IMG/VR virus record: IMGVR_UViG_2529293216_000013
DNA length: 35,441 bases
Direction: 5' to 3' (one strand)
From: a virus
Taxonomy: Duplodnaviria; Heunggongvirae; Uroviricota; Caudoviricetes
Position 1 is the first letter of the stretch. Each line of letters starts with the position of its first letter. Both the position numbers and the translations under genes were made by a program. Below the pieces are notes generated by a model, which saw only the letters and a program-made list of their open reading frames with translations, ran no database searches and was not told the DNA's origin. Of the stretch, positions 8,275 to 35,441 are shown one piece after another.

Positions 8275-8613
8275 CTATTTCCCTGAATTTACGACGAAAC
8301 TGTTCGAGCGGGCTGAAGCACTCATGCTCATAGCCTTCGCGGAGGTAGATAACCCGTTGTGTTTCCGGTTCCCAACGAATGACTCTGACGGGCACTCCGT
8401 AGTGATCTTTGAACCAGCGGTTAACTTGTCGCAAAGGACTGTCTCCTTTTGCCTGTTGAAATCACCCACAGCCCACTCTGCAAAGCTGTGGGTTACAATT
8501 TCCCTGTCACCTGGTACATTCACTGCATAGCAATACTCCACCTTCGCTTTTCCACCCGGTACAGGAAGTGCAATCAGTTGCGAGCGACGGTAGTGTGTTG
8601 TTAAACTGTTCAT
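8275..8613 (-). CDS. Hypothetical ORF between CII-like and O-like genes; frame ambiguous
   Basis: 112 aa ORF in one frame; a second minus-strand frame (8255..8434) has AAGGAG plus TTG start and a more protein-like product ([58 protein letters not shown]) ending in overlap with the O start. Confidence 0.3.
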
Positions 8614-9161
8614 GCGTTAGTTTCTCCACAGTCACGACACGCCACGGCGCCCGGAGCTGCACACTCGCGGGCGTCATTACTTTCTGAAATGCAAAAAATT
8701 TTGTAGACCAGTGCTGCATGCTCCTGCAGCTTCGAAATTGAGAGGTACAGCTCGTCGTTAATTGCTGTCTTCTCATGCGGTTCCACTACACCGTCTTCAA
8801 TTGCTGAACGAATCTGTTTTGAATAACTGCCGATCTGTTCAATGACCTCCAGCAGGCGTTGGTTGATATCGGCGTTGTCCACATCCTCGACATCAGGAAG
8901 AGACACAAAGACGCCATTTGCAGACTGCGCCACAGCGTCAGCAATGAAGTGAGTTCCACCAGCACGTTGCAAAATCATTGCCCATCCCAGCGGGAAAATC
9001 TGATCGCCATCGGCACGAAGGCGGTTAAATAATGCGTTCTCTGTTACATCCAGCCAGTCAGCAGCTTCAGCGTACCCCCCCGGCAACGCTGCGATAGTTT
9101 TTCTGACAGCTTTCACGTACCACTCAGGCTGTTTTTCTACTTTCCAGTGATGCTTACCCAC
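8610..9161 (-). CDS. CII/YdaT-like prophage regulatory protein (putative)
   Basis: 183 aa; immediately downstream of the Cro-like gene with overlapping start/stop; family assignment from memory only. Confidence 0.4.
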
Positions 9162-9414
9162 GGTTCACCTCCTGTTCCTGTGGTTTAAACCCATTCTGGT
9201 TTTGGCTAGATTGAAAACGTGCCGGATAAAGAATCTGCATTTCGCTGACTTCACCCTTAAAAAAATTGGCTAAACGTTCTGCAAGCTCGATAGATGGAAT
9301 CTGCTCCAGCCTCTCAATACGACTCAACGTCGCTGGATTGACTTGAACACCCGCAGCAACATGCTGCAAAGTGAAACCATGCGCCTTACGCACATTTCGT
9401 AATGGTGATTGCAT
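9154..9414 (-). CDS. Cro-like HTH repressor (XRE family)
   Basis: 86 aa; HTH GFTLQHVAAGVQVNPATLSRIERLEQIPSIELAERLANFF; divergent from cI across an operator-rich 97 bp spacer. Confidence 0.65.
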   Translation of the reverse strand: MQSPLRNVRKAHGFTLQHVAAGVQVNPATLSRIERLEQIPSIELAERLANFFKGEVSEMQILYPARFQSSQNQNGFKPQEQEVNRG

Positions 9415-9424
9415 ACGCCCTCCA

Positions 9425-9495
9425 AATATTGCGCGTTATGCATGTTATTTCACGCAATTATTTTGCGCAAGTTGATTTGCTTATCACGCAATAAA
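9425..9495. promoter_or_regulatory. Right operator/promoter region (OR-like) between cro-like and cI
   Basis: Repeated half-site motifs ATTGCGCG, CACGCAAT (twice) and palindromic TTGCGCAA in the divergent intergenic region. Confidence 0.5.
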
Positions 9496-9511
9496 GAAAT
9501 GTAATAAACGC

Positions 9512-10204
9512 ATGAACATAGGAAACCGAGTCAGACAACTTCGCCAAGCGAAGAACATGAAAATCGCCGATCTCGCTGAAGCGATAGGAGTAGATGCGGC
9601 GAACATCTCGCGCTTAGAAACGGGTAAGCAAAAACAATTTACCGAACAAACACTGAGTAATATTGCCAAGAGCTTAGGTGTTGATATTGCTGATCTCTTT
9701 ACCTCTGCCCACAAAAGTAATACTGTATATAAAAACAGTAATAATGAGGATGTTGCGCAGGTGAAGGATGTGTTCCGTATTGAAATGCTGGATATCAGTG
9801 CCAGTGCGGGAAATGGCCTTATCCAGGGCGGTGATGTCATTGATGTGATTCATGCCATCGAATACAGAACTGATAATGCTGTATCAATGTTCGGCGGACG
9901 ACCAGCCAATCACATCAAAGTTATCAACGTTCGTGGGGACAGTATGTGTCCAACCATTGAGCCAGGAGATCTCATCTTCGTTGATGTCAGCATCAATCAG
10001 TTTGATGGTGATGGTATATATGTCTTTGGTTTTGATGACAAAATATACGTTAAAAGACTTCAAATGATTCCTGACAAACTGCTGGTGATTTCTGATAACC
10101 AGATTTACCGTGAATGGGGAATTACTAGCGAAAACGAACACCGATTCATGGTCTTTGGAAAGGTCTTAATCAGTCAGTCGCAAACCCTTAAGAGACATAA
10201 TTAA
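9512..10204 (+). CDS. cI: CI-type prophage repressor (HTH plus S24 LexA-like autopeptidase domain)
   Basis: 230 aa; N-terminal HTH (MKIADLAEAIGVDAANISRLETGK); C-terminal S24 motifs VRGDSMCPTIEPGDLIFVD and YVKRL (Ser/Lys dyad). Confidence 0.85.
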   Translation: MNIGNRVRQLRQAKNMKIADLAEAIGVDAANISRLETGKQKQFTEQTLSNIAKSLGVDIADLFTSAHKSNTVYKNSNNEDVAQVKDVFRIEMLDISASAGNGLIQGGDVIDVIHAIEYRTDNAVSMFGGRPANHIKVINVRGDSMCPTIEPGDLIFVDVSINQFDGDGIYVFGFDDKIYVKRLQMIPDKLLVISDNQIYREWGITSENEHRFMVFGKVLISQSQTLKRHN

Positions 10205-10223
10205 CCTCAATATCCCATCCATC

Positions 10224-10248
10224 GGCCACCGAAAGGTGGCTTTTTATT
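10224..10248 (+). terminator. Rho-independent terminator downstream of cI
   Basis: GGCCACC-gaaa-GGTGGC hairpin followed by TTTTTATT. Confidence 0.65.
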
Positions 10249-10256
10249 ACCTATAA

Positions 10257-10295
10257 ATTTGCATATCTCGCAAATACCACTTGCATATCTCGCAA
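10257..10295. promoter_or_regulatory. Left operator-like tandem dyads (OL-like)
   Basis: Two copies of TTGCATATCTCGCAA (inverted TTGC...GCAA arms), sharing the TCxCGCAA core with the OR-region sites. Confidence 0.45.
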
Positions 10296-10502
10296 TTTAA
10301 TTTTATCTTTTATTCCAGACCAACTACAGGATTACAACAAAATCTGGTTGCAACACGGTGCATGTGTCGTAAGCAGTCAGTAAATGTCAAAAACGAACAG
10401 GCAGGACGCCCACGAAGTAGCCGCCTGGGGCATATGAAGTCCAGGATGATTCGTTGAGTCATGTTGTGCCACTAGGCACTCATGTTAAAGCAGGTGTATG
10501 AA

Positions 10503-10778
10503 ATGAAAGTCCAGATTTTAAACAATAACTGTGAAGTCGTTTGGTCATACGACATAGCCGCCCCTGTAGATCAGAGCGGCGATAGCTGGACCAATGGGAA
10601 ACATCAGATTATGGCTGGAGTTGTGTTCTCTTTACGCCGTGCTTTAGAACAGGCTGAAGTCTTTCCATCAGACCCTGAATGGAAATGGCCTTTTTCTATT
10701 TGTCCAAATTCGGAGAGTACATTTCAGAAAATTGGTCAGAAAGTCGCACTCGAAGAGCATCAGCCAACTGTTTCCTGA
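10503..10778 (+). CDS. Hypothetical protein downstream of cI (rex-position cargo?)
   Basis: ORF with AGGTG Shine-Dalgarno before ATG at 10503; no recognisable motif; 3' end overlaps a convergent ORF. Confidence 0.3.
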   Translation: MKVQILNNNCEVVWSYDIAAPVDQSGDSWTNGKHQIMAGVVFSLRRALEQAEVFPSDPEWKWPFSICPNSESTFQKIGQKVALEEHQPTVS

Positions 10779-10941
10779 TTTTTTCAGGTAACTCGTCGGC
10801 ATCGCAGAAACAACAACGCTCGATCATGTTGAAAGCCGATTCGTAGAACTGTTTTTGCTGAGTGTCGCTGAGACAGGAAAAGAGCGACGTTACGATGATT
10901 TTATTAATTGCATTATCAAGTTCTTTTTCATCAAAAGTCAT
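10696..10941 (-). CDS. Hypothetical small protein (81 aa)
   Basis: Protein-like composition (MTFDEKELDNAINKII...); convergent 83 bp overlap with the previous ORF, so one of the two may be spurious. Confidence 0.3.
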   Translation of the reverse strand: MTFDEKELDNAINKIIVTSLFSCLSDTQQKQFYESAFNMIERCCFCDADELPEKIRKQLADALRVRLSDQFSEMYSPNLDK

Positions 10942-11442
10942 TTGATTTTCCTTTTATGTATACGGGCTTAAAAGGATACCACCGAGCCTGAAGTGGTGAA
11001 AAGACAGGCACATAACAGCTAAGTATTTTCAACCAGAGAGAATCCTTAGCGTTGTGGTGAATGCGGCTCAGCGCACGCGGGTTAAGGTTGAGGCTGACAG
11101 TCGACCTTCTGTGGATACCCACCCGCCTGGTGTGCAACCTTCGCCAGGCACCGGGAGGCACCCGGCACCACAACTTTATGCTGTGTGTAGTCTTAGCGGT
11201 ACCAGCTTGTACCCTTGCTTCCGGCTGGTACCGTCCTTTTTACAAAACAGAGAAGAGCATCACCGGACGACGGGCTCATAACCCAATCCATCCGGGCGGC
11301 TGCCACCGCAGGTGTATAGCGCGGCGATTTTTTTGATACCGATTTGCATTTCATTTGATACCGCTGAAAAACGCCGATACGCAACTTATTTGATACTAAA
11401 TCGGCGCTTTTCTTTTGAGTTTTAGAATGAGTTTTTAAGCGC

Positions 11443-15700: not shown

Positions 15701-16261
15701 TTATTTTTCCGAAACGCTCGCAGGATAATAACGATAAAGGGTTGAAAGGCCGATATCAAAAATAAGTGCCACCTGTCTTCGACTGACACCCCCGGCCAGT
15801 AAACGCCCGACCTGCTCGTATTGTTCCTGCGTGAGACGACGGGGTCTGCCGCCGGTTCGTCCCCTTTCACGGGCAGCTGCAAGACCAGCCCGTGTCCGTT
15901 CGACAATTAATTCACGCTCCATTTCTGCCAGCGCACCCATTATGTGAAAAAAGAAGCGCCCCATGGGGGTTGACGTATCAATGTTGTCAGTAAGACTACG
16001 AAAATTTATCCCCTGTTGCTGTAATTCATCTGTCAGCGCAACAAGGTGGCGCATACTGCGCCCCAGCCTGTCCAGTTTCCAGACCATCAGTGTGTCACCG
16101 GGTTTTAGTTTCTTCAGTGCCCGCTTCAGTCCCGGCCGCTGTGTCGTTTTACCACTCATTTTATCTTCAAAAATCTGCTCACATCCTGCACATTCCAGCG
16201 CATTTCTTTGTAAACCTGTGTTCTGGTCATTTGTTGATACGCGTATATAGCCAATCAGCAT
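15701..16261 (-). CDS. pin: Serine recombinase DNA invertase (Pin/Hin/Gin/Cin family), copy 1
   Basis: 186 aa; MLIGYIRVSTNDQNTGLQRNALECAGCEQIFEDK...GRSMRHL...C-terminal HTH; close match to e14 Pin as recalled. Confidence 0.9.
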   Translation of the reverse strand: MLIGYIRVSTNDQNTGLQRNALECAGCEQIFEDKMSGKTTQRPGLKRALKKLKPGDTLMVWKLDRLGRSMRHLVALTDELQQQGINFRSLTDNIDTSTPMGRFFFHIMGALAEMERELIVERTRAGLAAARERGRTGGRPRRLTQEQYEQVGRLLAGGVSRRQVALIFDIGLSTLYRYYPASVSEK

Positions 16262-16687
16262 GTATTTACCTTCCTTAAAAAGAGGTGGAAAGGCCTTTTA
16301 AAGCAGATATACGGCATCCCTGAAACCTTCGGTTTACGGGATACTGTAAACAGGGCCGCGAATGCCCTGCCATCGAACGGAGCGGCTGTTGCAGCGAATA
16401 AACTCGCCACTCCAAGAAATATTAATGGTGTCCCATTTGACGGAACGCAGGATATAAATATTACATCGGGGATGACGCAGTCTGTGGCTGACTCACGTTA
16501 TGTTCAAAGCATTCGAAGAGGTTCAAGGTCAACGATTGGAATGCAATATAATATTTTTGAGGTTCCTGACGGATGCGTACTTACAGGGCTTGATGTCGCT
16601 GGTGATGGTAATGCAACGGTAACCGCATATTATCGACCTGTTCAGTTTCTGATAGATGGTTCGTGGAAAACAGCTTCCAGCGCATAA
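16262..16687 (+). CDS. Tail fibre variable C-terminal segment (Sv), 5'-truncated (no constant part)
   Basis: Open frame from 16238 without start codon; ...LATPRNINGVPFDGTQDINITSGMTQSVADSRYVQ...AYYRPVQFLIDGSWKTASSA. Confidence 0.55.
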   Translation, partial: VFTFLKKRWKGLLKQIYGIPETFGLRDTVNRAANALPSNGAAVAANKLATPRNINGVPFDGTQDINITSGMTQSVADSRYVQSIRRGSRSTIGMQYNIFEVPDGCVLTGLDVAGDGNATVTAYYRPVQFLIDGSWKTASSA

Positions 16688-17715
16688 AAGTGCAGTAGTT
16701 CAAAAAACAGATTATCTGAATAAATATATGATGATTTTGTCTTTTCAACAAAAACAAGGTGAAATAATGGAGCTTATTAACGTAAAACGATATTACCCGG
16801 AACACAAACCCTATGGTGAGGATGTTCAGTATTTCCAGAGTGAGGACGGAAGGGATTTTTATGAATCTATCCCGCTTTTCACAAAGAAATACAAACTCTG
16901 TATTTCGCCTGTAACGGGTATTATCTGCTCTGTTGCTGAAGATGTCTCTGCTTTATATCCGGCAGGTTTTACTGTTGTTGAAGTGGACGAACTGCCGGAA
17001 GGTGTGAATATTGACGGTAACTGGCAGTTTTCTGATGGCCTGATATCAAAGGTGCCGGTAAACTGGAAGACGGTTGCTGAAAAGCGCCGCTCATCGCTGC
17101 TCCAGGAAGCCAACGAAACTGTGGATGACTGGAAAACGGAATTAAAACTGGACATGATTAGCGATGAAAATAAATTACAGCTGACGCGCTGGATGGCGTA
17201 TATCCGACAGCTTAAAGAAATGCACTTTAATGATATTGCCAGTGAGGGGCATTACCAGGCGATTCCCTGGCCGGAAAAACCGGAATAATTCAGAGGGTGC
17301 ATTCAGCACCCTTTTCTGTGGTTTACACTGAACTTACCGTTCTCCAGGCATTATTAATATAAATCTGAACCGGGCGATAATAGACCCCACCGATATTGTC
17401 CGCAGACCGGGAGCCGGTTTCCTGCACGTTAATTCCGGAAAGCATACAACCGGAAGGTGCGCTGTAATTCCATGACATTTCATTGCCTCCGGGTGAATGA
17501 TAGCTCTGTGCTCCAAGCTGAACATTCTGTACATACCGGCCATCTGCGGTTGACTGCGTCATTCCTGACGTGATGTTGATATCCAGCGTTCCGTCAAAAG
17601 GAACACCATTAATATTTCTTGGGGTGGCGAGTCTGTTTGCTGCCACGGCGGTTCCACCCGATGGCAGGGCATCAGCAGCCTTATTTACCGTTTCCCGTAA
17701 ACCAACGTTTAAGAA
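16318..17715. mobile_element. Invertible tail-fibre segment (G/P-segment-like) between inverted crossover sites
   Basis: gix/cix-like sites AAACCTTCGGTTTACGGGA near 16320..16343 and inverted partial copy near 17692..17712; both lie inside tail-fibre reading frames at the conserved ...GLR(D/E)TVN(R/K)AA(N/D)ALP... junction. Confidence 0.55.
16767..17288 (+). CDS. Tail fibre assembly protein (Tfa/U-like)
   Basis: Start MELINVKRYYPEHKP with Shine-Dalgarno; C-terminus ...LTRWMAYIRQLKEMHFNDIASEGHYQAIPWPEKPE typical of Tfa chaperones. Confidence 0.7.
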   Translation: MELINVKRYYPEHKPYGEDVQYFQSEDGRDFYESIPLFTKKYKLCISPVTGIICSVAEDVSALYPAGFTVVEVDELPEGVNIDGNWQFSDGLISKVPVNWKTVAEKRRSSLLQEANETVDDWKTELKLDMISDENKLQLTRWMAYIRQLKEMHFNDIASEGHYQAIPWPEKPE

Positions 17716-17745
17716 AATGCAGAGATTATGGCTAACTGGCATCAT
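17323..17745 (-). CDS. Alternative tail fibre variable C-terminal segment (Sv')
   Basis: Shares ...LATPRNINGVPFDGTLDINITSGMTQSTADGRYVQ... with Sv, then diverges; ends ...VYYRPVQIYINNAWRTVSSV. Confidence 0.55.
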   Translation of the reverse strand: MMPVSHNLCIFLNVGLRETVNKAADALPSGGTAVAANRLATPRNINGVPFDGTLDINITSGMTQSTADGRYVQNVQLGAQSYHSPGGNEMSWNYSAPSGCMLSGINVQETGSRSADNIGGVYYRPVQIYINNAWRTVSSV

Positions 17746-17772
17746 CCCCGGTTTTTACTCAGGGGAATGCTC

Positions 17773-18327
17773 ATGCTTATTGGCTATGTCCGCGTATCAA
17801 CAAATAACCAGAATACGGAATTACAGCGTAATGCGCTGGAGTGTGCAGGATGTGAGCTGATTTTTGAAGACAAGATAAGCGGTACAAAGTCCGACAGACC
17901 AGGACTGAAAAAGCTGCTCAGGACATTATCGGCAGGTGACACGCTGGTGGTCTGGAAACTGGACCGACTGGGGCGCAGTATGCGGCATCTTGTCGTGCTG
18001 GTGGAGGAGTTGCGCGAACGAGGCATCAACTTTCGTAGTCTGACGGATTCAATTGATACCAGTACCCCAATGGGGCGCTTTTTCTTTCATGTGATGGGTG
18101 CCCTGGCTGAAATGGAGCGTGAACTGATTGTTGAACGAACAAAAGCTGGACTGGAAGCAGCTCGCGCACAGGGACGAATTGGTGGACGTCGTCCCAAACT
18201 TACACCAGAACAATGGGCGCAGGCCGGGCGATTAATTGCATCAGGCGTTCCTCGCCAAAAGGTGGCGATCATCTATGATGTTGGTATATCGACACTGTAT
18301 AAGAAGTTTCCGGTCGGAGATAAATGA
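17773..18327 (+). CDS. pin: Serine recombinase DNA invertase (Pin family), copy 2
   Basis: Start MLIGYVRVSTNNQNTELQRNALECAGCELIFEDK...; roughly 80% identical to copy 1, opposite orientation. Confidence 0.9.
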   Translation: MLIGYVRVSTNNQNTELQRNALECAGCELIFEDKISGTKSDRPGLKKLLRTLSAGDTLVVWKLDRLGRSMRHLVVLVEELRERGINFRSLTDSIDTSTPMGRFFFHVMGALAEMERELIVERTKAGLEAARAQGRIGGRRPKLTPEQWAQAGRLIASGVPRQKVAIIYDVGISTLYKKFPVGDK

Positions 18328-18387
18328 AACCGTAGCACGTCGTATGCAAGAAGATCGTGCTGCGGTTTATGCTTATCACTTAAAGAC

Positions 18388-19257
<870 letters not shown>

Positions 19258-19337
19258 CTAAGTCTTTGAATTTACATAGTACAAAAAAGATACTTTTCCT
19301 CATAATGTGAATTAATTTTATGTTTCGTTTGATGATT

Positions 19338-19403
19338 GGACCGGTCTCGAAAACCGGAGTAGGGGCAACTCTACCGGGGGGGCAAATCCCCCTCTCTCCG
19401 CCA
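19338..19403 (+). tRNA. Degenerate 3' fragment of tRNA-Ser (serU-like, anticodon CGA); probable prophage att scar, not a functional tRNA
   Basis: GGACCGGTCTCGAAAACCGGAGTAGGGGCAACTCTACCGGGGGGGCAAATCCCCCTCTCTCCGCCA matches the tRNA-Ser(CGA) 3' two-thirds as recalled, with a damaged T-loop (GGGCAAATCC instead of GGTTCAAATCC); 5' acceptor/D-arm absent. Confidence 0.6.
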
Positions 19404-19976
19404 CTTTATCAATGACTTATCTCCCGACTTCCCGCCTTGCTTTTCCTAAACAGAACAATCGTAGAATATTCTTGAAGGGTTAGATCGTCACTGTTTTCTG
19501 TTCGATACTGTGACATTCAGCACTTGATTCGCTATGGATCTGACAGGAAGGTTTCGAGCGAAAATCTGCAGTTATTCAGTCGTTTTCTTATCGGTCACCA
19601 TTATTCTTTTAGACATTGATCCTACAAAGCTGCCGCAAAGTTGGTGGTGGGAACTGAAGTTGCGTAGAGAAGGGGTCAATACCCGGAGGCAAACATGGGC
19701 TGGCAAAAGTGTAGCGGTATTAGGCGCAGCTATTTAGCCTAGTTATGTTTTATGAAAACTTGATATCATATAAGTGTCTTACTTATTGGCTGTAAATAAG
19801 TTTTTCCTAAGGAATTGTTTCTTGAGTATCATTTGTAACTGTAACGGAATTTATAATCCTTTGCTTTATTGTTACGGTATTTTTTATCACACCCTATTTT
19901 TAGTGGTTTTTTATACTGAAGTTTGGCAAAGTGAACTTTATATACATATACTTCATCCTGGTTTCAGTTAAATTGG

Positions 19977-20729
19977 GTGGATGATATGGCAACTACATGT
20001 TCAGTTATATTGATTTTGGAGTCCTTTGATGTTTATTTCGGAAAAGAGAGTGTGTTTCTGGAGAGAGGTTCATCTGTACTTGTCGACTCTAGCTCTAGAG
20101 ATTTTTTCCTGACATATCCTGAAAGAGTGATAGTGGCGGATTTTGGCGCTGAGTTTATTAGTCGCTATTTGAAAGCTAATAACTTAAGGGATATTTCTGA
20201 TTGTAGGGAATATCCATCTTATTTAAAAATAAACTTTGCTGACTTCAGTTTAATTAAAGGATTAATTAGTTGGGCTAATCACTGTGCTGAATACATAGAA
20301 ATTTTTGATGAGTCTATTGCTTTTACATGTCTCTCTGCATTTTCTTCTGAAAAACAATTTGGAGTATTTCTGTTTGGATGTTTGAAAAGCACAGGGGCTA
20401 AAGTTAAAACGATTATTCATACGGATTTATCTGCACCATGGCGTCTTAAGGATATATCATCAAGATTATATCTCAGCGAAAGTTTACTAAAGAGGAAATT
20501 GAAAGAAGAGGGGGTATCATTCAGTAAGATCATACTTGATGAGAGGATGCAAATGGCTGAATATTTACTCAGCACTCGTTGTTATCCTATTAGTAAAGTA
20601 GCTAAGGTCTGTGGTTATGCCAGTGTCTCATACTTTACTTATGTATTTAGACGTTATTTTGGTGTTTCTCCAAGTCAATACTCTCAGAGGAGTTCAGAAA
20701 GTAAAATTCTTACTCACCAGGGAATCTGA
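19977..20729 (+). CDS. AraC-family transcriptional regulator (AppY-like, AT-rich)
   Basis: 250 aa; C-terminal dual HTH WRLKDISSRLYLSESLLKRKLKEEGVSFSKIILDERMQMAEYLL...VAKVCGYASVSYFTYVFRRYFGVSPSQY resembles AppY as recalled. Confidence 0.7.
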   Translation: MDDMATTCSVILILESFDVYFGKESVFLERGSSVLVDSSSRDFFLTYPERVIVADFGAEFISRYLKANNLRDISDCREYPSYLKINFADFSLIKGLISWANHCAEYIEIFDESIAFTCLSAFSSEKQFGVFLFGCLKSTGAKVKTIIHTDLSAPWRLKDISSRLYLSESLLKRKLKEEGVSFSKIILDERMQMAEYLLSTRCYPISKVAKVCGYASVSYFTYVFRRYFGVSPSQYSQRSSESKILTHQGI

Positions 20730-20770
20730 TCATTGTTCTTGCCCCCTTATTTCCAGACAGGGGGTGTATC

Positions 20771-21214
20771 TTAAGTTAACGTTACCCGCTGACGTCGATA
20801 TTCTCGCGGAGAGCGATAACCCAACGCACTGTGCGGATGGTTTTCATTGTAATGTTCGATCGCCACTGCAAGATTATGCAATGCCGTTCTTACATTCGGT
20901 TTCGGCATGAACGCGATATAGTCTTCCTTCATCGTTTTCACGAACCTTTCTGCAATTCCATTACTCTGAGGACTGCTGATTGCCGTTGTGCAGGGCTCCA
21001 GATTCAACTCTCTGGCGAACTGCCGTGTTTCATGCGCTCTATACGCTGAACCGTTATCTGTCAGCCACTGGATGGACTGTTCCGGTACTTTATCGCCAAA
21101 GCGTTTTTCTATCGCTCCTAACATGACATCCTGCACTGTCGCTTTATCGTAACCTCCCGTGCTTGCGGCCCAGTCTATGGCTTCACGATCGCAACAGTCC
21201 AGGGCGATTCATCT
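20771..21214 (-). mobile_element. IS3-family (IS2-like) transposase remnant: C-terminal DDE-domain portion only
   Basis: ...[50 protein letters not shown]...[14 protein letters not shown] matches IS2 OrfB C-terminus; no ATG, frame closed upstream by a stop near 21215. Confidence 0.7.
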
Positions 21215-21483
21215 GGGCCAATCCTCGCTCATAACAGGCATTCACTTCAGTCATGGCAGAAAGGTATGCATGCTGGAGAAGTCGTGAAAGAAAAGAAGAC
21301 TGCTGCGCCGTTTGTCGTCACGTTTATCTTCATTGGCTATGCAAGTCGTAATACAAGGTGGGACAAAACTGAGACACATAAGGCCTCGCAATGGCTTGCA
21401 AGGCTTTACATGTTTTGATGTGGTGGGACGTGTGAGCGCAGTGTTGATGGGGTAATGCTTTGAATTAGAAGCGGATTCTTATA

Positions 21484-21529
21484 ATTCGTAATGCGAAGGT
21501 CGTAGGTTCGACTCCTATTATCGGCACCA
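21484..21529 (+). tRNA. 3' fragment (about 46 nt) of tRNA-Thr (thrW-like); attL core of the P4-like element
   Basis: ATTCGTAATGCGAAGGTCGTAGGTTCGACTCCTATTATCGGCACCA matches the thrW 3' half as recalled; upstream sequence does not match the tRNA 5' half. Confidence 0.65.
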
Positions 21530-21691
21530 TCTCAACTTCCTCAAACGTCCGTATTAGTCCATAAAATCTCTGATTTATAACATTTTTTATTCTTTTAAGT
21601 CCATAGTAGTCCGTAACCATCCAGTAGAATCCGGTACTGAATGTGTATAGGATTGTGTATATGTTCCTGTTCGGTCTGGATTCCTATACAC

Positions 21692-22873
21692 ATGCCTTTA
21701 AACGATATGCAGATTCGCCGCGCTAAGCCTGAAGCTAAAGCCTATACATTTGGAGATGGGCTAGGGTTGTCATTACTTATAGAACCTAATGGAAGCAAGA
21801 GTTGGCGGTTCCGCTATCGCTATGCCGGCAAACCCAAAATGATCTCGCTTGGTGTTTACCCAACGATCACCCTTGCCGATGCTCGTTCCCGTCGTGATGA
21901 AGCTCGAAAACTTGTGGCAGAAGGAAAGAACCCTAGTGAGGTTCGAAAAGAGCAAAAGCTAGCTATGCAAACAGAGTCAGAGAACGCCTTCGAAAAGATA
22001 GCCAGAGAGTGGCATCAACTTAAATCTGCTAAATGGTCGGCGGGATATGCATCAGACATCATGGAAGCGTTTAAGAACGACATTTTTCCTTATGTCGGAA
22101 CAAGGCCTGTGGGAGAGATTAAACCGCTAGAGCTGCTGAACGTTCTGCGTAAAATTGAGAAACGTGGTGCGTTGGAGAAAATGCGCAAAGTGCGGCAGCG
22201 TTGCTCCGAAGTGTTTCGCTACGCAATTGCAACGGGTAGGGCGGAGTACAATCCTGCGGCTGATCTCTCCAGCGCTCTCGAAGTACACCAATCCAATCAT
22301 TTCCCATTCCTAAAAGCTGATGAGATACCTGATTTTCTACGTGCCTTAGAGGGTTACTCCGGGAGTAAGCTTGTCCAGATAGCCACGAAATTACTGATGA
22401 TTACGGGTGTGAGAACCATCGAATTACGCGCGGCATTATGGCAAGAATTTGATCTGGATAACGCTATTTGGGAAATTCCTGCTGAAAGGATGAAAATGCG
22501 TAGGCCACATCTTGTGCCCTTATCATCTCAAGCGGTAGATTTACTCAATGAACTCAAGATCATGACAGGGAACTATCGTTATGTTTTTCCAGGGCGGAAC
22601 GATCCGAATAGGCCAATGAGCGAAGCGAGTATAAATCAAGCCATTAAGCGTATTGGGTATGGAGGAAAAGTCACTGGACATGGTTTTCGTCATACCCTTT
22701 CTACAATCCTGCATGAGCAAGGTTTTGAGAGTGCTTGGATTGAAATCCAGTTGGCTCATGTAGATAAAAATTCTATTAGGGGGACTTATAACCATGCTCA
22801 ATATTTTAGTGGAAGGAAGTCTATGATGGACTGGTACAGTAATTTGATATTTGAAAGACTAAAAAGGAGTTAA
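21692..22873 (+). CDS. int: P4-type tyrosine integrase
   Basis: N-terminus MPLNDMQIRRAKPEAKAYTFGDGLGLSLLIEPNGSKSWRFRYRYAGK...; C-terminal catalytic region HGFRHT...; adjacent to tRNA fragment. Confidence 0.85.
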   Translation: MPLNDMQIRRAKPEAKAYTFGDGLGLSLLIEPNGSKSWRFRYRYAGKPKMISLGVYPTITLADARSRRDEARKLVAEGKNPSEVRKEQKLAMQTESENAFEKIAREWHQLKSAKWSAGYASDIMEAFKNDIFPYVGTRPVGEIKPLELLNVLRKIEKRGALEKMRKVRQRCSEVFRYAIATGRAEYNPAADLSSALEVHQSNHFPFLKADEIPDFLRALEGYSGSKLVQIATKLLMITGVRTIELRAALWQEFDLDNAIWEIPAERMKMRRPHLVPLSSQAVDLLNELKIMTGNYRYVFPGRNDPNRPMSEASINQAIKRIGYGGKVTGHGFRHTLSTILHEQGFESAWIEIQLAHVDKNSIRGTYNHAQYFSGRKSMMDWYSNLIFERLKRS

Positions 22874-22876
22874 TTT

Positions 22877-23293
22877 GTGTCTCAACCACTTTCGGAAATA
22901 TTGACATGGGATGATGAACAATGGGAGGTATTTGTCCATGATTGGCTTATTGTCTGTAAATCAGATGATTACCCGTGGAGCGAACGTTTGGGAGGAGCTG
23001 GAGATAAAGGTAGAGACGTTGTTGGATATAAATCGGATCCTAACGTAGAAGGTTATTCTTGGGATAATTATCAATGCAAACTGTACAAAAAAAGTTTAGG
23101 GTTCTCTGATGTTGTAGTTGAGTTTGGAAAACTTATCTATTTTACTCTGAATGGTGATTATCCCATCCCTCAGAAGTACTTTTTTGTGGCACCCTATGAT
23201 TTATCTACTACATTTTCTAATTTATTGAAAAATAAAAACGAGCTTAAAAAAGCAGTCCTTGATTCATGGGATTCAGCAATTTCAAAAAAATAA
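22877..23293 (+). CDS. Mrr-like PD-(D/E)xK nuclease domain protein, 5' segment of candidate defence effector (LmuA-like); frame breaks in A7 tract
   Basis: GTG start with AAAAAGGAG Shine-Dalgarno 4 nt after int stop; motif GGAGDKGRDVVGY...YQCKLYKK resembles Mrr catalytic core GDGGIDG...QCKRYK; about 28% GC. Confidence 0.5.
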   Translation: MSQPLSEILTWDDEQWEVFVHDWLIVCKSDDYPWSERLGGAGDKGRDVVGYKSDPNVEGYSWDNYQCKLYKKSLGFSDVVVEFGKLIYFTLNGDYPIPQKYFFVAPYDLSTTFSNLLKNKNELKKAVLDSWDSAISKK

Positions 23294-23883
23294 CTAAAAA
23301 GATTGATATTCCATTAGATGATGAAATAAAAAAATATATTGAGGATTTTGATTTTAGTATTTTTTACTCTCTACCCTTATCATTGATTTTAAATGATATT
23401 GCAAATACACACCTTTATTTTAAGTACTTTAACGAGCTGTATGTCGTGAGAATCCCTCCAAATGAAATTCCAACATACAATTCAAAAAAAGAGTCTGTAT
23501 ATGTTAATGCACTGCTTCAAGCCTATTCAGAGCATGGAAATAAAACTTATAGTTCTTTCTTAGAGCTTGATGATCCATACAGACGACACTTTAATAATAG
23601 TAGAAATGATTTTTATTTTGCATCTTCGCTTGAGGTTTTTGTCCGCGAAGTATTTAAAGATGATGTATTCAAAGCATTGAAATGTTACATTTCATCTTCA
23701 ATTGAACCCGTCTTTTATGAAGACCATAATTATGCATTTATTAGGTGTAATGCAGTCTTGAAGCAGGCTGTTCTGACACCAATTGCACATTCAGTACTAT
23801 CAAAAATATGTGAAGCAAATGATAAAAAAGGAATATGCCATCATTTGGTTAATGATGGTGAAGTAATTTGGACGGTGAGATAA
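23266..23883 (+). CDS. 3' segment of the same candidate effector gene (C-terminal domain, function unknown)
   Basis: Frame is +1 relative to previous ORF and fuses with it if the A7 tract at 23284..23290 is read as A8 (...DSWDSAISKKITKKIDIPLDDEIKK...). Confidence 0.45.
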   Translation: MGFSNFKKITKKIDIPLDDEIKKYIEDFDFSIFYSLPLSLILNDIANTHLYFKYFNELYVVRIPPNEIPTYNSKKESVYVNALLQAYSEHGNKTYSSFLELDDPYRRHFNNSRNDFYFASSLEVFVREVFKDDVFKALKCYISSSIEPVFYEDHNYAFIRCNAVLKQAVLTPIAHSVLSKICEANDKKGICHHLVNDGEVIWTVR

Positions 23884-24341
23884 TGGTTAGAATTTATAAT
23901 TCAAGTTTAGAAGTGGCATGTCGAATGGCGAAAGTGCTCGTCGCTATTTATCCTTCTTCATTAAGCCTTGAACGGCTTATTTGTTTTGATTTTATTTTAG
24001 TAAATCTTAAGGATTTTTTACCTGAAGAGATTAGTCTTCATCCTCCAATACCCCGTAGAGATGCTCAGTTAGCCCTAAAACGAGAGATTGTTTTAGAATC
24101 ATTGGCTTTGTTGCAAGGCTATGAACTAGCCTCAAAAATTTATACACATCGTGGTTTTGTATATAAAGCTTCTGAAAAAACATATGCATTTACAAATTCT
24201 CTACATAATGAATATGTTGCGCAGATGGAGCATAATATAAATTTGGTGGTTAAGTTATATAGTGATATTCCTGATGAGCAGTTGCAATCAATTATAAAAA
24301 ATAAAATTGGCAAATATGATATGGAATTTAATTATGAATGA
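23883..24341 (+). CDS. Small middle component of candidate defence operon (LmuC-like position)
   Basis: ATG overlaps upstream stop (TAATG); 3' end overlaps next gene start (ATGAATGA); AT-rich; no recognisable motif. Confidence 0.45.
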   Translation: MVRIYNSSLEVACRMAKVLVAIYPSSLSLERLICFDFILVNLKDFLPEEISLHPPIPRRDAQLALKREIVLESLALLQGYELASKIYTHRGFVYKASEKTYAFTNSLHNEYVAQMEHNINLVVKLYSDIPDEQLQSIIKNKIGKYDMEFNYE

Positions 24342-24966
24342 CAATTTTTTTACGTTCAGAAAAATAAAGGTAACCGGATTCAATAAATTAGATGCTATAA
24401 TTGAATTTGGTTCTAAATTGACTATTTTATATGGTGGTTCTGACTCTGGAAAAACATACATATATTATTTGATTCGATATTTATTAGGGAGTGAAAAACT
24501 AAAAAATAAAGATATCGATCATGCTCAAGGTTATGATTTAGCCTATCTGGAATTTAATTTTCAAGGTAGGGTAATGACAATTGAGAGGTCTCTTCAGGAT
24601 AGCGCCCATTACAGATTATATGATTCGAGCATTGAAAATGTTAGTGAAGCTAATCTGTTGATGGTTTTTTCCAAAAGTGCTTCGTCTAAAAAGAGTTTTT
24701 CATCATACTTTTATGGTAGGTTGAATTTCAAAGAGGCTAAAGTAAGAACAAACTTAAGTAATACTCTTCATAAATTTAATCTTAATAATGTTTTTGAATT
24801 TTTTTGTATTGATGAATTAAGAGTGTTAACTGAGAAGTCGTTAATTCTTTCTGATATTCCTAGCGAGGAGACAAAAAGAAAGTCTGAATTTAAATTCCTT
24901 TTAACTCAGAGAGATGATACTAACTCCTTAGCAGAAAAACCAAATAAAAAAGCAAGATATTTTTAA
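24334..24966 (+). CDS. SMC/Rad50-like ABC ATPase, N-terminal head segment with Walker A (LmuB-like)
   Basis: FRKIKVTGFNKLDAIIEFGSKLTILYGGSDSGKTYIYYLIRYLLG (Walker A GGSDSGKT); ends at in-frame TAA 24964..24966, after which the same frame stays open. Confidence 0.5.
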   Translation: MNDNFFTFRKIKVTGFNKLDAIIEFGSKLTILYGGSDSGKTYIYYLIRYLLGSEKLKNKDIDHAQGYDLAYLEFNFQGRVMTIERSLQDSAHYRLYDSSIENVSEANLLMVFSKSASSKKSFSSYFYGRLNFKEAKVRTNLSNTLHKFNLNNVFEFFCIDELRVLTEKSLILSDIPSEETKRKSEFKFLLTQRDDTNSLAEKPNKKARYF

Positions 24967-24996
24967 AAAAATCAAATTGCAAATATTTATGAGGAA

Positions 24997-25587
24997 TTGA
25001 AAGCGCAATTAATTTATCCTGAATATGATCAAGTCATTGTTTCAAGAGAACTTGAGAAAGTAGAGCAAGATATTGAATCATCGAAAGATATATTGAAAGG
25101 TATTGTTGATGCACTTGATGATAAGAAGCAATTATTAAAAGAGTTAAGTGATGAATTATATTCAATCAGTGACAGGGAAAAATACTTATCATTACTCATT
25201 GAAAGATTTAGTCTTCTTAAAGACCAATACTTTATAGATCTACAAAGAATAGATGTTGTATCACAGGCGAATTTCTATTTAAATAATTTTGCAGATATTT
25301 ATTGTGAGTTCTGTAATACACCGCAAAAAAAAGAAAATGAAATATCATATGATGATTGTTTTTTGTCGTGTAATGCAGAAAAATTGAAAATCAAAAGCCA
25401 GCTGAAAGGATTAATTGAATCAATCGGATCTAATGTTCGCGAACATGAATTAATTATGTTAAGAAAAAATGATGTTAATGAAATTTATCAATCAGAAAAA
25501 AGTGATTTTAAGACGTTAGAAGATAAAAATATAAAACAATACATTCATCTCTTGAATCACTTTATGAATATAAAGACAATCTTTTAA
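24997..25587 (+). CDS. Coiled-coil segment of the ATPase with CxxC hook-like motif (same frame as previous segment, no ATG)
   Basis: Heptad-rich sequence; YCEFCNTPQKK...C...C near the middle; frame continuous with 24334..24966 apart from one TAA. Confidence 0.45.
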   Translation: MKAQLIYPEYDQVIVSRELEKVEQDIESSKDILKGIVDALDDKKQLLKELSDELYSISDREKYLSLLIERFSLLKDQYFIDLQRIDVVSQANFYLNNFADIYCEFCNTPQKKENEISYDDCFLSCNAEKLKIKSQLKGLIESIGSNVREHELIMLRKNDVNEIYQSEKSDFKTLEDKNIKQYIHLLNHFMNIKTIF

Positions 25588-34541: not shown

Positions 34542-35441
34542 TTAAGCCAATTGCTGCCGCCATTCCTTAACGTGGTCAATCAGAGCGCGGAGCTTTGGTG
34601 CAATATTGCGACGCTGTGGGAAATACAGATAGAAGCCCGGAAATTGTGGAAGAAAGTCATCAAGCAGAGATACAAGCTTACCGCTTTCAATATACGGCCT
34701 GAAAGTTTCCTGAGTGGCAATTGTTATTCCTCCGCCGGCAAGAGCCAGCCTCAACATCAGACGCAGATCATTAGTCGTAATCTGCGGTTCAATCGCAAGG
34801 TCGAAAGCTCTCCCGTTTTCTTCAAATGGCCAGCGATAAGGCGCAACCTCCGGGGACTGACGCCAGCCGATACACTTATGATTCACAAGTTCACGCGGAT
34901 GAACAGGTGTGCTGTTGGCTGCGAGATAGGAGGGAGAGGCAACGACCATTTCACGCTGCCTGCCGGTAAGGGGCACAGCAATCATGTCTTTTTCAATGAC
35001 CTCTCCGAGCCTTACGCCAGCATCGTAACCTGCGGCCACGATATCGAATTCCTCATCCGTGACAACAATATCAAGCGTAACGGCTGGATTGGCTGCTGCA
35101 AACGAAGCGATTAGCGGACCTGAAAGAAATTCTTCAGCTATTGACGTCACCGCGATTCTGAGAAGTCCGCGTGGCACATGGTCAGAAACCATCTCTTCGA
35201 ACGCTGCCTCAATACCGGATAAAGGTAATGACAGCGATTTATGCAGCCGTTCTCCCGCTTCTGTCAAATTAACTGAGCGCGTGGTCCGCATTACAAGCAT
35301 TGTCCCGAATGCATCTTCAAGGCGTCTTATTCCCTGACTGACCGCTGAACGGGTAACGCCCAGCCGTGCGGCGGCTTTACTAAAATTACTCTCTTCTGCT
35401 ACCGCGATAAAAATGGGTAAAAGATTAAGATCGATTTTCAT
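34542..35441 (-). CDS. LysR-family transcriptional regulator (299 aa)
   Basis: N-terminal HTH FIAVAEESNFSKAAARLGVTRSAVSQGIRRLEDAFGTMLVMRTTRSVNLTEAG; start ATG at window end 35441..35439. Confidence 0.85.
   Translation of the reverse strand: MKIDLNLLPIFIAVAEESNFSKAAARLGVTRSAVSQGIRRLEDAFGTMLVMRTTRSVNLTEAGERLHKSLSLPLSGIEAAFEEMVSDHVPRGLLRIAVTSIAEEFLSGPLIASFAAANPAVTLDIVVTDEEFDIVAAGYDAGVRLGEVIEKDMIAVPLTGRQREMVVASPSYLAANSTPVHPRELVNHKCIGWRQSPEVAPYRWPFEENGRAFDLAIEPQITTNDLRLMLRLALAGGGITIATQETFRPYIESGKLVSLLDDFLPQFPGFYLYFPQRRNIAPKLRALIDHVKEWRQQLA

Follow-up and report, generated by a model that had tools for sequence, protein, structure and literature searches.

The stretch of DNA analysed here (the window, 35,441 nucleotides) carries, from position 17684 to its end at 35441, a segment with 99.97% identity to Escherichia coli O157:H7 FRIK944, and FRIK2455 likewise differs by 0.03%. 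This segment maps downstream of proA-thrW, a region that is the site of the Sakai prophages Sp1 and Sp2 (PMC8190617). In FRIK2455, the order begins with proA, an intact thrW, a tyrosine integrase, and lambdoid early and lysis genes. It continues with a P27-type terminase, an HK97-type head, a contractile tail, invertible tail-fibre genes, pinE, and a GIY-YIG gene. It ends with a tRNA-Ser fragment (called Ser' here), an AraC-family gene, an IS3 fragment, a 46-nt piece of thrW (thrW'), and the integrase of a P4-like element. In the window, thrW' occupies 21484–21529 (plus strand) and is an exact copy of the 3' 46 nt of the thrW tRNA-Thr(CGU) (thrW positions 31–76), beginning in the anticodon stem. 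It is the sole copy in the window and starts 2081 bp downstream of the end of Ser'. The interval 21208–21483 that precedes it is the right (P) arm of the thrW prophage's own att site. This arm is unlike the phage contexts that carry the neighbouring cassette elsewhere, and it has an 89% match adjoining thrW' in EC21Z-097. thrW' is both the in-place attR of the thrW prophage and the tRNA end beside the P4-like integrase. With thrW and the integrase on the left in FRIK2455 and thrW' on the right, Ser' is internal to the thrW prophage.

The phage SfV integrates at thrW, and e14 integrates at icd. Phages of the SfV/e14 type have an HK97-like head, a P27-type terminase, a Mu-like contractile tail, and a Pin invertase, and they carry cargo in the interval from the tail fibres to attP. 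The prophage in the window resembles them in its gene order, in the RefSeq names of its genes (ymfL, ymfQ, ymfR, tfaE, pinE), and in a cargo slot beside pin. As in SfV, the thrW integrase adjoins the tRNA; the likeness to SfV is one of gene order and annotation. The cargo differs, being the GIY-YIG gene and the Ser' cassette here, the gtr genes in SfV, and mcrA in e14. Two plasmid records were considered as excised forms of this prophage and rejected. The record pAR-0428-2, taken as an excised circle, turned out to be a linear, misassigned chromosomal contig. The record pA16EC0305-2, taken as proof of excision, is a 35-kb circle that lacks the integrase and the early genes.

Ser' lies at 19338–19403 (plus strand) and has the sequence GGACCGGTCTCGAAAACCGGAGTAGGGGCAACTCTACCGGGGGGGCAAATCCCCCTCTCTCCGCCA. 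It begins at the end of the D stem, takes in the anticodon, variable, and T arms, and finishes with CCA. Aligned with the last 66 nt of the E. coli K-12 serU tRNA-Ser(CGA), it is identical at 64 of 66 positions (97.0%). The earlier note had described a 66-nt 3' copy of tRNA-Ser(CGA) at exactly this position, and this was confirmed; the identity over the fragment is far above the level of about 85% that the note had set for the alignment. Its placement of the fragment was also correct, with the tail-fibre/pinE/GIY-YIG end of the prophage on one side and the AraC gene and IS remnants on the other. A 23-nt piece of Ser' occurs once in the window and in none of 100 shuffles. The reference serU tRNA-Ser(CGA) is 90 nt long, and Ser' lacks its 5' 24 nt. 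The only mismatches are at fragment positions 44 and 45 (GGGGGTTCAAATCCCCC to GGGGGGGCAAATCCCCC). They fall on T54 and Ψ55 of the T loop, which are universally conserved; T54/T55 is changed to GG, and the conserved T54-Ψ55-C56 is absent (GTTC to GGGC). ARAGORN found no tRNA genes in the whole window, and Rfam at its gathering score gave no tRNA match in the window. Permissive Rfam searches returned a tRNA-Sec-like match and a minus-strand plastid 3'UTR motif, which we rejected as meaningless sub-threshold echoes of tRNA-derived sequence. A complete cloverleaf is not present, as only the last 66 of 90 nt are kept. With its 5' 24 nt gone and its T loop mutated, Ser' is not a tRNA gene and has no tRNA function. 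A promoter and terminator scan of 19150–20050 gave nothing beyond the expectation from shuffled sequence. The single promoter-like site in this interval (19923–19952) is upstream of the AraC gene and outside the scar.

The damage to the T loop, which the earlier note had reported, is real in the window but is a derived state that only part of the copies share. The exact GG form was found in only 105 of 5291 matching records. Four alleles exist among the copies of the cassette, namely TT (the wild type), GT, GG, and a deletion of one G. The corresponding G-run forms are GGGGGTT, GGGGGGT, GGGGGGG, and one with a G fewer. Such variation is free decay beside a G run, as expected for an unconstrained, non-functional relic. 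The GT intermediate occurs behind GIY-YIG-type and Sp14-type arms (see below) alike, which implies recurrent mutation or exchange.

Past CCA, which is where the copy described in the note ends, the match to the serU locus extends through a further 278 bp of the native serU-yodB intergenic spacer, up to position 19681, and the captured spacer (the B' side of the junction) thus occupies 19404–19681 on the plus strand. The combined 344 bp (19338–19681) match the native serU locus in 5405 of 5426 complete E. coli genomes. The spacer differs from that of K-12 at 8 of 278 positions. It differs at 7 of 276 positions from the flank of O157's own serU, which is the attR of Sp14, and at only 1 of 278 positions from the native serU flank of strain CFSAN061770. 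The difference between these two values shows that the spacer was imported from a non-O157 lineage. The copy is thus host DNA in a haplotype foreign to O157. In CFSAN061770, the best spacer match, no yodB is annotated between serU and zinT.

A phage family that integrates at the native serU provides the counterpart of this junction. Window 19000–19681 was joined to the K-12 spacer sequence that continues it, and this chimeric query aligned over its full length with E. coli MB15 and RMDEC332, at 98.2% identity. Both strains hold, at the native serU, a complete prophage of the same family as that of the window. The MB15 prophage is complete and measures approximately 39 kb. Its left part has the order mtfA, serU, three ORFs, integrase, and early genes, and its right part has P27-type terminase, contractile tail, pinE, GIY-YIG, Ser', spacer, and yodB. 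The integrase of this phage type is WP_044325874.1. It is flanked by perfect direct repeats of 68 bp (GGACCGG...CCGCCACT), which equal the 66-nt block of the window plus CT. The repeat starts at the GGACC of the window fragment and stops 2 nt past CCA. Window 17684–19681 is 95.7% identical to positions 45507–47503 of the MB15 serU-prophage locus. The last gene of the phage right arm (the P arm side) is a LEM-3-like GIY-YIG gene at 18388–19161 on the minus strand (Pfam PF22945, E 2e-14). Its protein, WP_000355484.1, is identical in the window and beside the Ser' repeat of MB15. The non-coding end of the P arm (19162–19337) abuts the att block and is common to the attR of MB15; it was present in 21 of the 30 IMG/VR copies of the cassette.

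Ser' therefore has several features of an attR. Its limits are those of the MB15 direct repeat, the GIY-YIG phage arm lies on its 5' side, and native host flank lies on its 3' side. A partner attL with a cognate integrase is the one element missing, as the left end of the prophage is thrW with an unrelated integrase. No second copy of Ser' was found in the window, and neither the window nor the homologous FRIK2455 thrW prophage contained a serU attL or a serU-type integrase. Without them, Ser' is not a live boundary. These comparisons indicate that Ser' is a fossil, attR-type scar of a serU-integrating phage. We also searched the viral contigs in IMG/VR for the free attP (P arm, core, and P' arm) of an MB15-type serU phage, using the core and the P' arm as the query. 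No attP was found; only attL-type junctions with an intact tRNA were returned.

The prophage Sp14/CP-933U of O157:H7 is also integrated at serU (PMC8190617). Its attR resembles the junction in the window, having a serU block of 61–66 nt that starts in the anticodon stem or directly ahead of it, with the phage P arm on the left and the native spacer on the right. The Sp14 block starts 5 nt later than the block of the window and MB15. Unlike the Sp14 attR, the junction in the window lies at thrW inside another prophage, keeps only 278 bp of host flank, and has neither a partner attL nor a cognate integrase. Sp14 is the tccP/espJ prophage, and O157 retains the native order in which the Sp14 attR is followed by yodB. 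A third class of element is present at the native serU in many genomes. Its repeat is shorter and starts at the equivalent of window position 19390, with approximately 14 nt of the acceptor 3' end. Different integrases thus use serU at two or more sublocations.

On its right, the spacer gives way to the terminal 56 bp of an IS630-family element (19682–19737, plus strand), with the final part of the transposase gene and the right inverted repeat (...GCGCAGCTATTTAG). UPEC_U013 has a full-length IS630-family copy with a frameshifted transposase; the remnant matches the right end of that copy at 98.2% identity, and its right repeat is complementary to the left end of the copy (CTAAATAGCTGCGC). The terminal inverted repeat is thus present, and an intact element with transposase and TA target duplication is absent. 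At the junction (19681/19682), GAGAAGGGGTCAATA is joined to CCCGGAGG, and this junction is common to every copy of the cassette examined. Since it lies inside the IS, within the transposase gene, and not at the tip, it is an illegitimate join and not a simple insertion. The remnant is followed by a gene for an AraC-family regulator of 247 amino acids (19986–20729, plus strand; Pfam HTH_AraC and HTH_18, RefSeq 'AraC family') and by a truncated IS3-family transposase with the integrase core (20771–21207, minus strand; Pfam rve and rve_3). Homology to ev099, mEp332, and AR_0369 stops at 21207, which sets the right limit of the cassette. The cassette of 1.87 kb (19342–21207) therefore consists of Ser', the spacer, the IS630 remnant, the AraC regulator, and the IS3 remnant.

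PatE is a prophage-encoded regulator of acid resistance and of the LEE, located on O-island 8 of EHEC (PMC10877973). Some lambdoid prophages carry AraC-like regulators at their right end, among them AppY of the K-12 prophage DLP12 and PatE, PsrA, and PsrB of EHEC (PMC10057817, PMC10877973). Like these, the regulator of the cassette belongs to the AraC family and is encoded among prophage cargo, at the end where the tail fibres lie. Its probable identity is PatE (Z0321, O-island 8), and its place in the thrW prophage region is consistent with this. The database clusters name it only 'AraC family'.

The cassette is not confined to the thrW prophage. The isolated lambdoid phages ev099, mEp332, and PhiR70_1 carry 19342–21207 with 98.8–99.2% identity, and in all three it lies in the b region, between a tail-fibre assembly gene and attP-int. 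It was also found in a prophage next to intS-argW, in a prophage at att-lambda, in a remnant near the pao genes, and in a 10-kb Sakai-type Sp1 remnant. The exact junction of spacer and IS630 remnant occurs in 30 IMG/VR contigs. In complete RefSeq records, at least 80% of 19213–19976 is held by 519 (517 genomes), and the part from the IS630 remnant to the AraC gene is held by 647 (645 genomes). The exact junction was found in none of the GTDB species representatives, and the searches gave no evidence of it outside E. coli strains. On its left, the cassette is joined to different arms. Among the 30 IMG/VR copies, 15 have the GIY-YIG arm as in the window, six have the variant seen in the Sakai-type Sp1 remnant, eight have a homologue of the Sp14 P arm, and one is unclassified. 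One right junction behind several genuine serU P arms means a single capture and, after it, at least one exchange of arms.

Related arms are present in two circular, phage-like records, AH02 'plasmid unnamed3' (NZ_CP081704.1, about 22560–22590) and pHNAH212872-4. In these, the same GIY-YIG arm is followed only by GGACCGGTCTC(G/A)AAAACCG, which is the serU anticodon stem-loop, and the break coincides precisely with the 3' end of its stem. Next come genes for a cytosine methyltransferase and a type II restriction endonuclease. We considered the AH02 circle as an excised serU or thrW phage and rejected it; its integrase differs, neither a serU nor a thrW core is present, and its 20-nt remnant of Ser' is internal.

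We put the probability at roughly 85% that 19338–19681 is the fossil attR of a phage that once resided in the real serU of another E. coli lineage, and that it is now carried as cargo at thrW. The junction is made up of the phage right arm with the GIY-YIG gene, the 66-nt duplicated serU block, and the first 278 bp of host DNA past serU. In its present place, the junction is inert cargo near the right end of an SfV/e14-like thrW prophage. Host sequence contiguous with the att block is found inside packaged phage genomes, as expected of captured host DNA.

In specialised transducing phages of the lambda-bio type, aberrant excision brings attR and adjacent host DNA into the phage genome. A serU prophage may have acquired its own attR and the adjacent host DNA through such an excision; illegitimate or IS-associated recombination is the alternative. 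The attR piece would then have been fused to the segment with the IS630 remnant, the AraC gene, and the IS3 remnant. Recombination among mosaic phages could subsequently have set the block behind various tail modules and beside various integrase/attP modules. The likeness to lambda-bio lies in the att-contiguous host DNA in the b-region position of ev099, mEp332, and PhiR70_1, between the tail-fibre genes and int, and in its origin from a lineage other than the present host. Unlike in lambda-bio, the captured piece is short and non-coding, with IS remnants and a regulator gene joined to it. The int/attP of the carrier phages looks functional and has another specificity, so more recombination must have come after the capture. 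The same spacer-IS630 junction joined to three forms of left arm also means that at least one extra exchange has to be assumed. A progenitor locus, in which the native serU and the 278 bp are followed by an IS630-family element or the AraC gene, was not found in the complete RefSeq genomes.

A different possibility is that Ser' still has a function, either as a secondary att site for serU-specific integrases or as a 344-bp homology anchor for the exchange of arms. In Ser', the anticodon stem-loop is whole and the identity block complete. All three forms of left arm precede one identical spacer-IS630 junction, each meeting the att block at its edge or no more than 5 nt from it, and both kinds of arm (GIY-YIG and Sp14 P arm) are also real attR arms at the native serU. 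In addition, the arm of AH02 and pHNAH212872-4 keeps only the anticodon stem-loop (GGACCGGTCTCNAAAACCG) before the restriction-modification cassette, which is the pattern expected for an exchange inside the anticodon loop. Against a function, the window holds no serU-type integrase, and that of the FRIK2455 thrW prophage is unrelated. We saw no genome with a prophage flanked by cassette copies of Ser', and only two places in 2024CK-00188 are Ser-homologous. Decay is free in the T loop but not in the anticodon stem-loop. The searches turned up nothing that directly supports such a role. In the alignment of spacer copies, the informative SNPs are all in the right half, and crossovers are therefore untraceable from them. 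We consider a functional Ser' unlikely, with about one chance in five, and give the same weight to the related idea that Ser' with its 278 bp is a portable recombination handle through which phages swap tail or accessory arms, or cargo, with serU prophages. If the handle existed, the cassette phages would have 344 bp in common with the right end of every serU-resident prophage and would retain an entire core site on which serU-specific integrases could act. It would also explain the three forms of left arm of two kinds, plus the AH02-type relatives with a stem-loop and restriction-modification genes.

The junction could also have arisen by chromosomal rearrangement, in which serU and thrW prophages recombined within one chromosome and later deletions trimmed the host flank to 278 bp. 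The window itself shows recombination between prophages in this region, and long stretches of homology are common to serU and thrW prophages. However, O157 genomes keep the Sp14 attR intact and followed by yodB, and the spacer copy departs from the resident one (7/276) and matches that of another lineage. The same junctions are packaged in isolated phages, which argues for transfer by phage and not for an intrachromosomal event in this lineage. These findings contradict a rearrangement within the O157 lineage, and we regard this explanation as quite improbable. An intrachromosomal event could nevertheless have been the original capture step in some ancestor.

Arrays of elements in tandem are common at tRNA genes, and the scar could in principle have formed in place, by integration of an element at a local serU-like tRNA beside thrW. 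Ser' would then be the boundary of two independent insertions. Two tRNA 3' fragments do lie approximately 2.1 kb apart, and the kinds of genes differ on either side of Ser'. The window, however, contains neither a tRNA-Ser gene nor its 5' part, and none is present within 20 kb on either side of the FRIK944 match or to the left of thrW in FRIK2455. Attached to Ser' are 278 bp of genuine serU-yodB spacer, free phage genomes and other att sites also carry the block, and Ser' lies between the thrW and thrW' repeats. Formation in place is contradicted by these findings and is highly improbable. This bears on several proposals of the earlier note. Its att scar at a serU-like tRNA was rightly recognised as a serU scar, given the repeat and arm of MB15, but integration did not take place locally, as no tRNA-Ser gene belongs here. 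Its two tRNA integration sites within 2.2 kb are both real as remnants; only thrW' is an in-place att site, and Ser' is imported. As an internal mobile-element boundary, Ser' does separate phage structural and accessory genes from the cargo cassette, yet it is not the edge of an element integrated here. The comparison of flanks with the intact tRNA-Ser that the note had suggested gave a match to a native serU attR, with a 278-bp spacer that is foreign to O157. Many lambdoid phages carry tRNA genes, but a remnant of a phage-encoded tRNA-Ser gene, or a chance similarity, has a negligible probability here, since the 66-nt limits equal those of the att direct repeat, the downstream 278 bp are chromosomal spacer, and the matches of 64/66 and over 344 bp are far beyond chance.

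As a fossil attR, the scar is an ordinary but unusually traceable relic of phage recombination, and it is a clean, datable marker of phage history. Displaced 3' fragments of tRNA genes and the capture of host DNA by aberrant excision are already textbook knowledge, and this scar is a new documented example; the current understanding of phage integration and recombination is unchanged by it. We found no description of this particular scar in the literature searched. It is mainly useful for tracing where the AraC cassette came from and how it spread. With its probable PatE, the cargo at the right end of the O157:H7 thrW prophage (Sp1 region) appears to have arrived as a 1.87-kb cassette that was assembled at the serU of another E. 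coli lineage and then spread by phages of at least three integration specificities. For annotation, a tRNA fragment in a prophage region need not mean an element boundary or a local site of integration. The scar also gives O157 two copies of a 344-bp stretch, one in its thrW and one in its serU prophage region, and this repeat is a possible substrate for large rearrangements.

The window is rearranged relative to every complete RefSeq E. coli genome (1–18327, with junctions near 11312 and 17684–17709). Positions 1–11315 are the early and lysis region of the thrW prophage in reversed orientation. From approximately 11312, the right end of a Mu-like (Sp18-like) prophage follows, with a terminal TGTATAGCGCGG and repeated TTTGATAC motifs. 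Its genes include mom, an ORF of 679 amino acids, and a gin-like invertase (15701–16261, minus strand). The thrW prophage resumes at 17684, where an overlap of 26 bp has a gix/pix-like crossover site; its inverted partner lies next to gin, at about 16313–16338. One invertible tail-fibre segment thus lies between two invertase genes, the gin-like gene and pinE. This part of the window is best explained by two steps, the insertion of a Mu-like phage in the thrW prophage and a later Gin/Pin-mediated inversion between the invertible segments of both phages.

To the right of thrW', the P4-type tyrosine integrase of the next element, an Sp2-like satellite, is encoded at 21692–22873 (plus strand; Pfam Arm-DNA-bind_3, Phage_int_M, and Phage_integrase; RefSeq annotation in agreement). 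No further thrW repeat was found within the window at the far end of this element. A 22-nt imperfect repeat occurs at 21640 and at 34318, 12.7 kb apart, and may mark the ends of the element. Within the element, Rfam gave two matches above the gathering score, isrK (71.9 bits) and C4 antisense RNA (84 bits), at 29407–29484 and 29553–29640, upstream of an Icd-like gene. Directly after the integrase, 22877–26153 encodes proteins named 'ABC-three component system' in RefSeq and an AAA ATPase, and this region is likely anti-phage defence cargo in the variable slot of the satellite.
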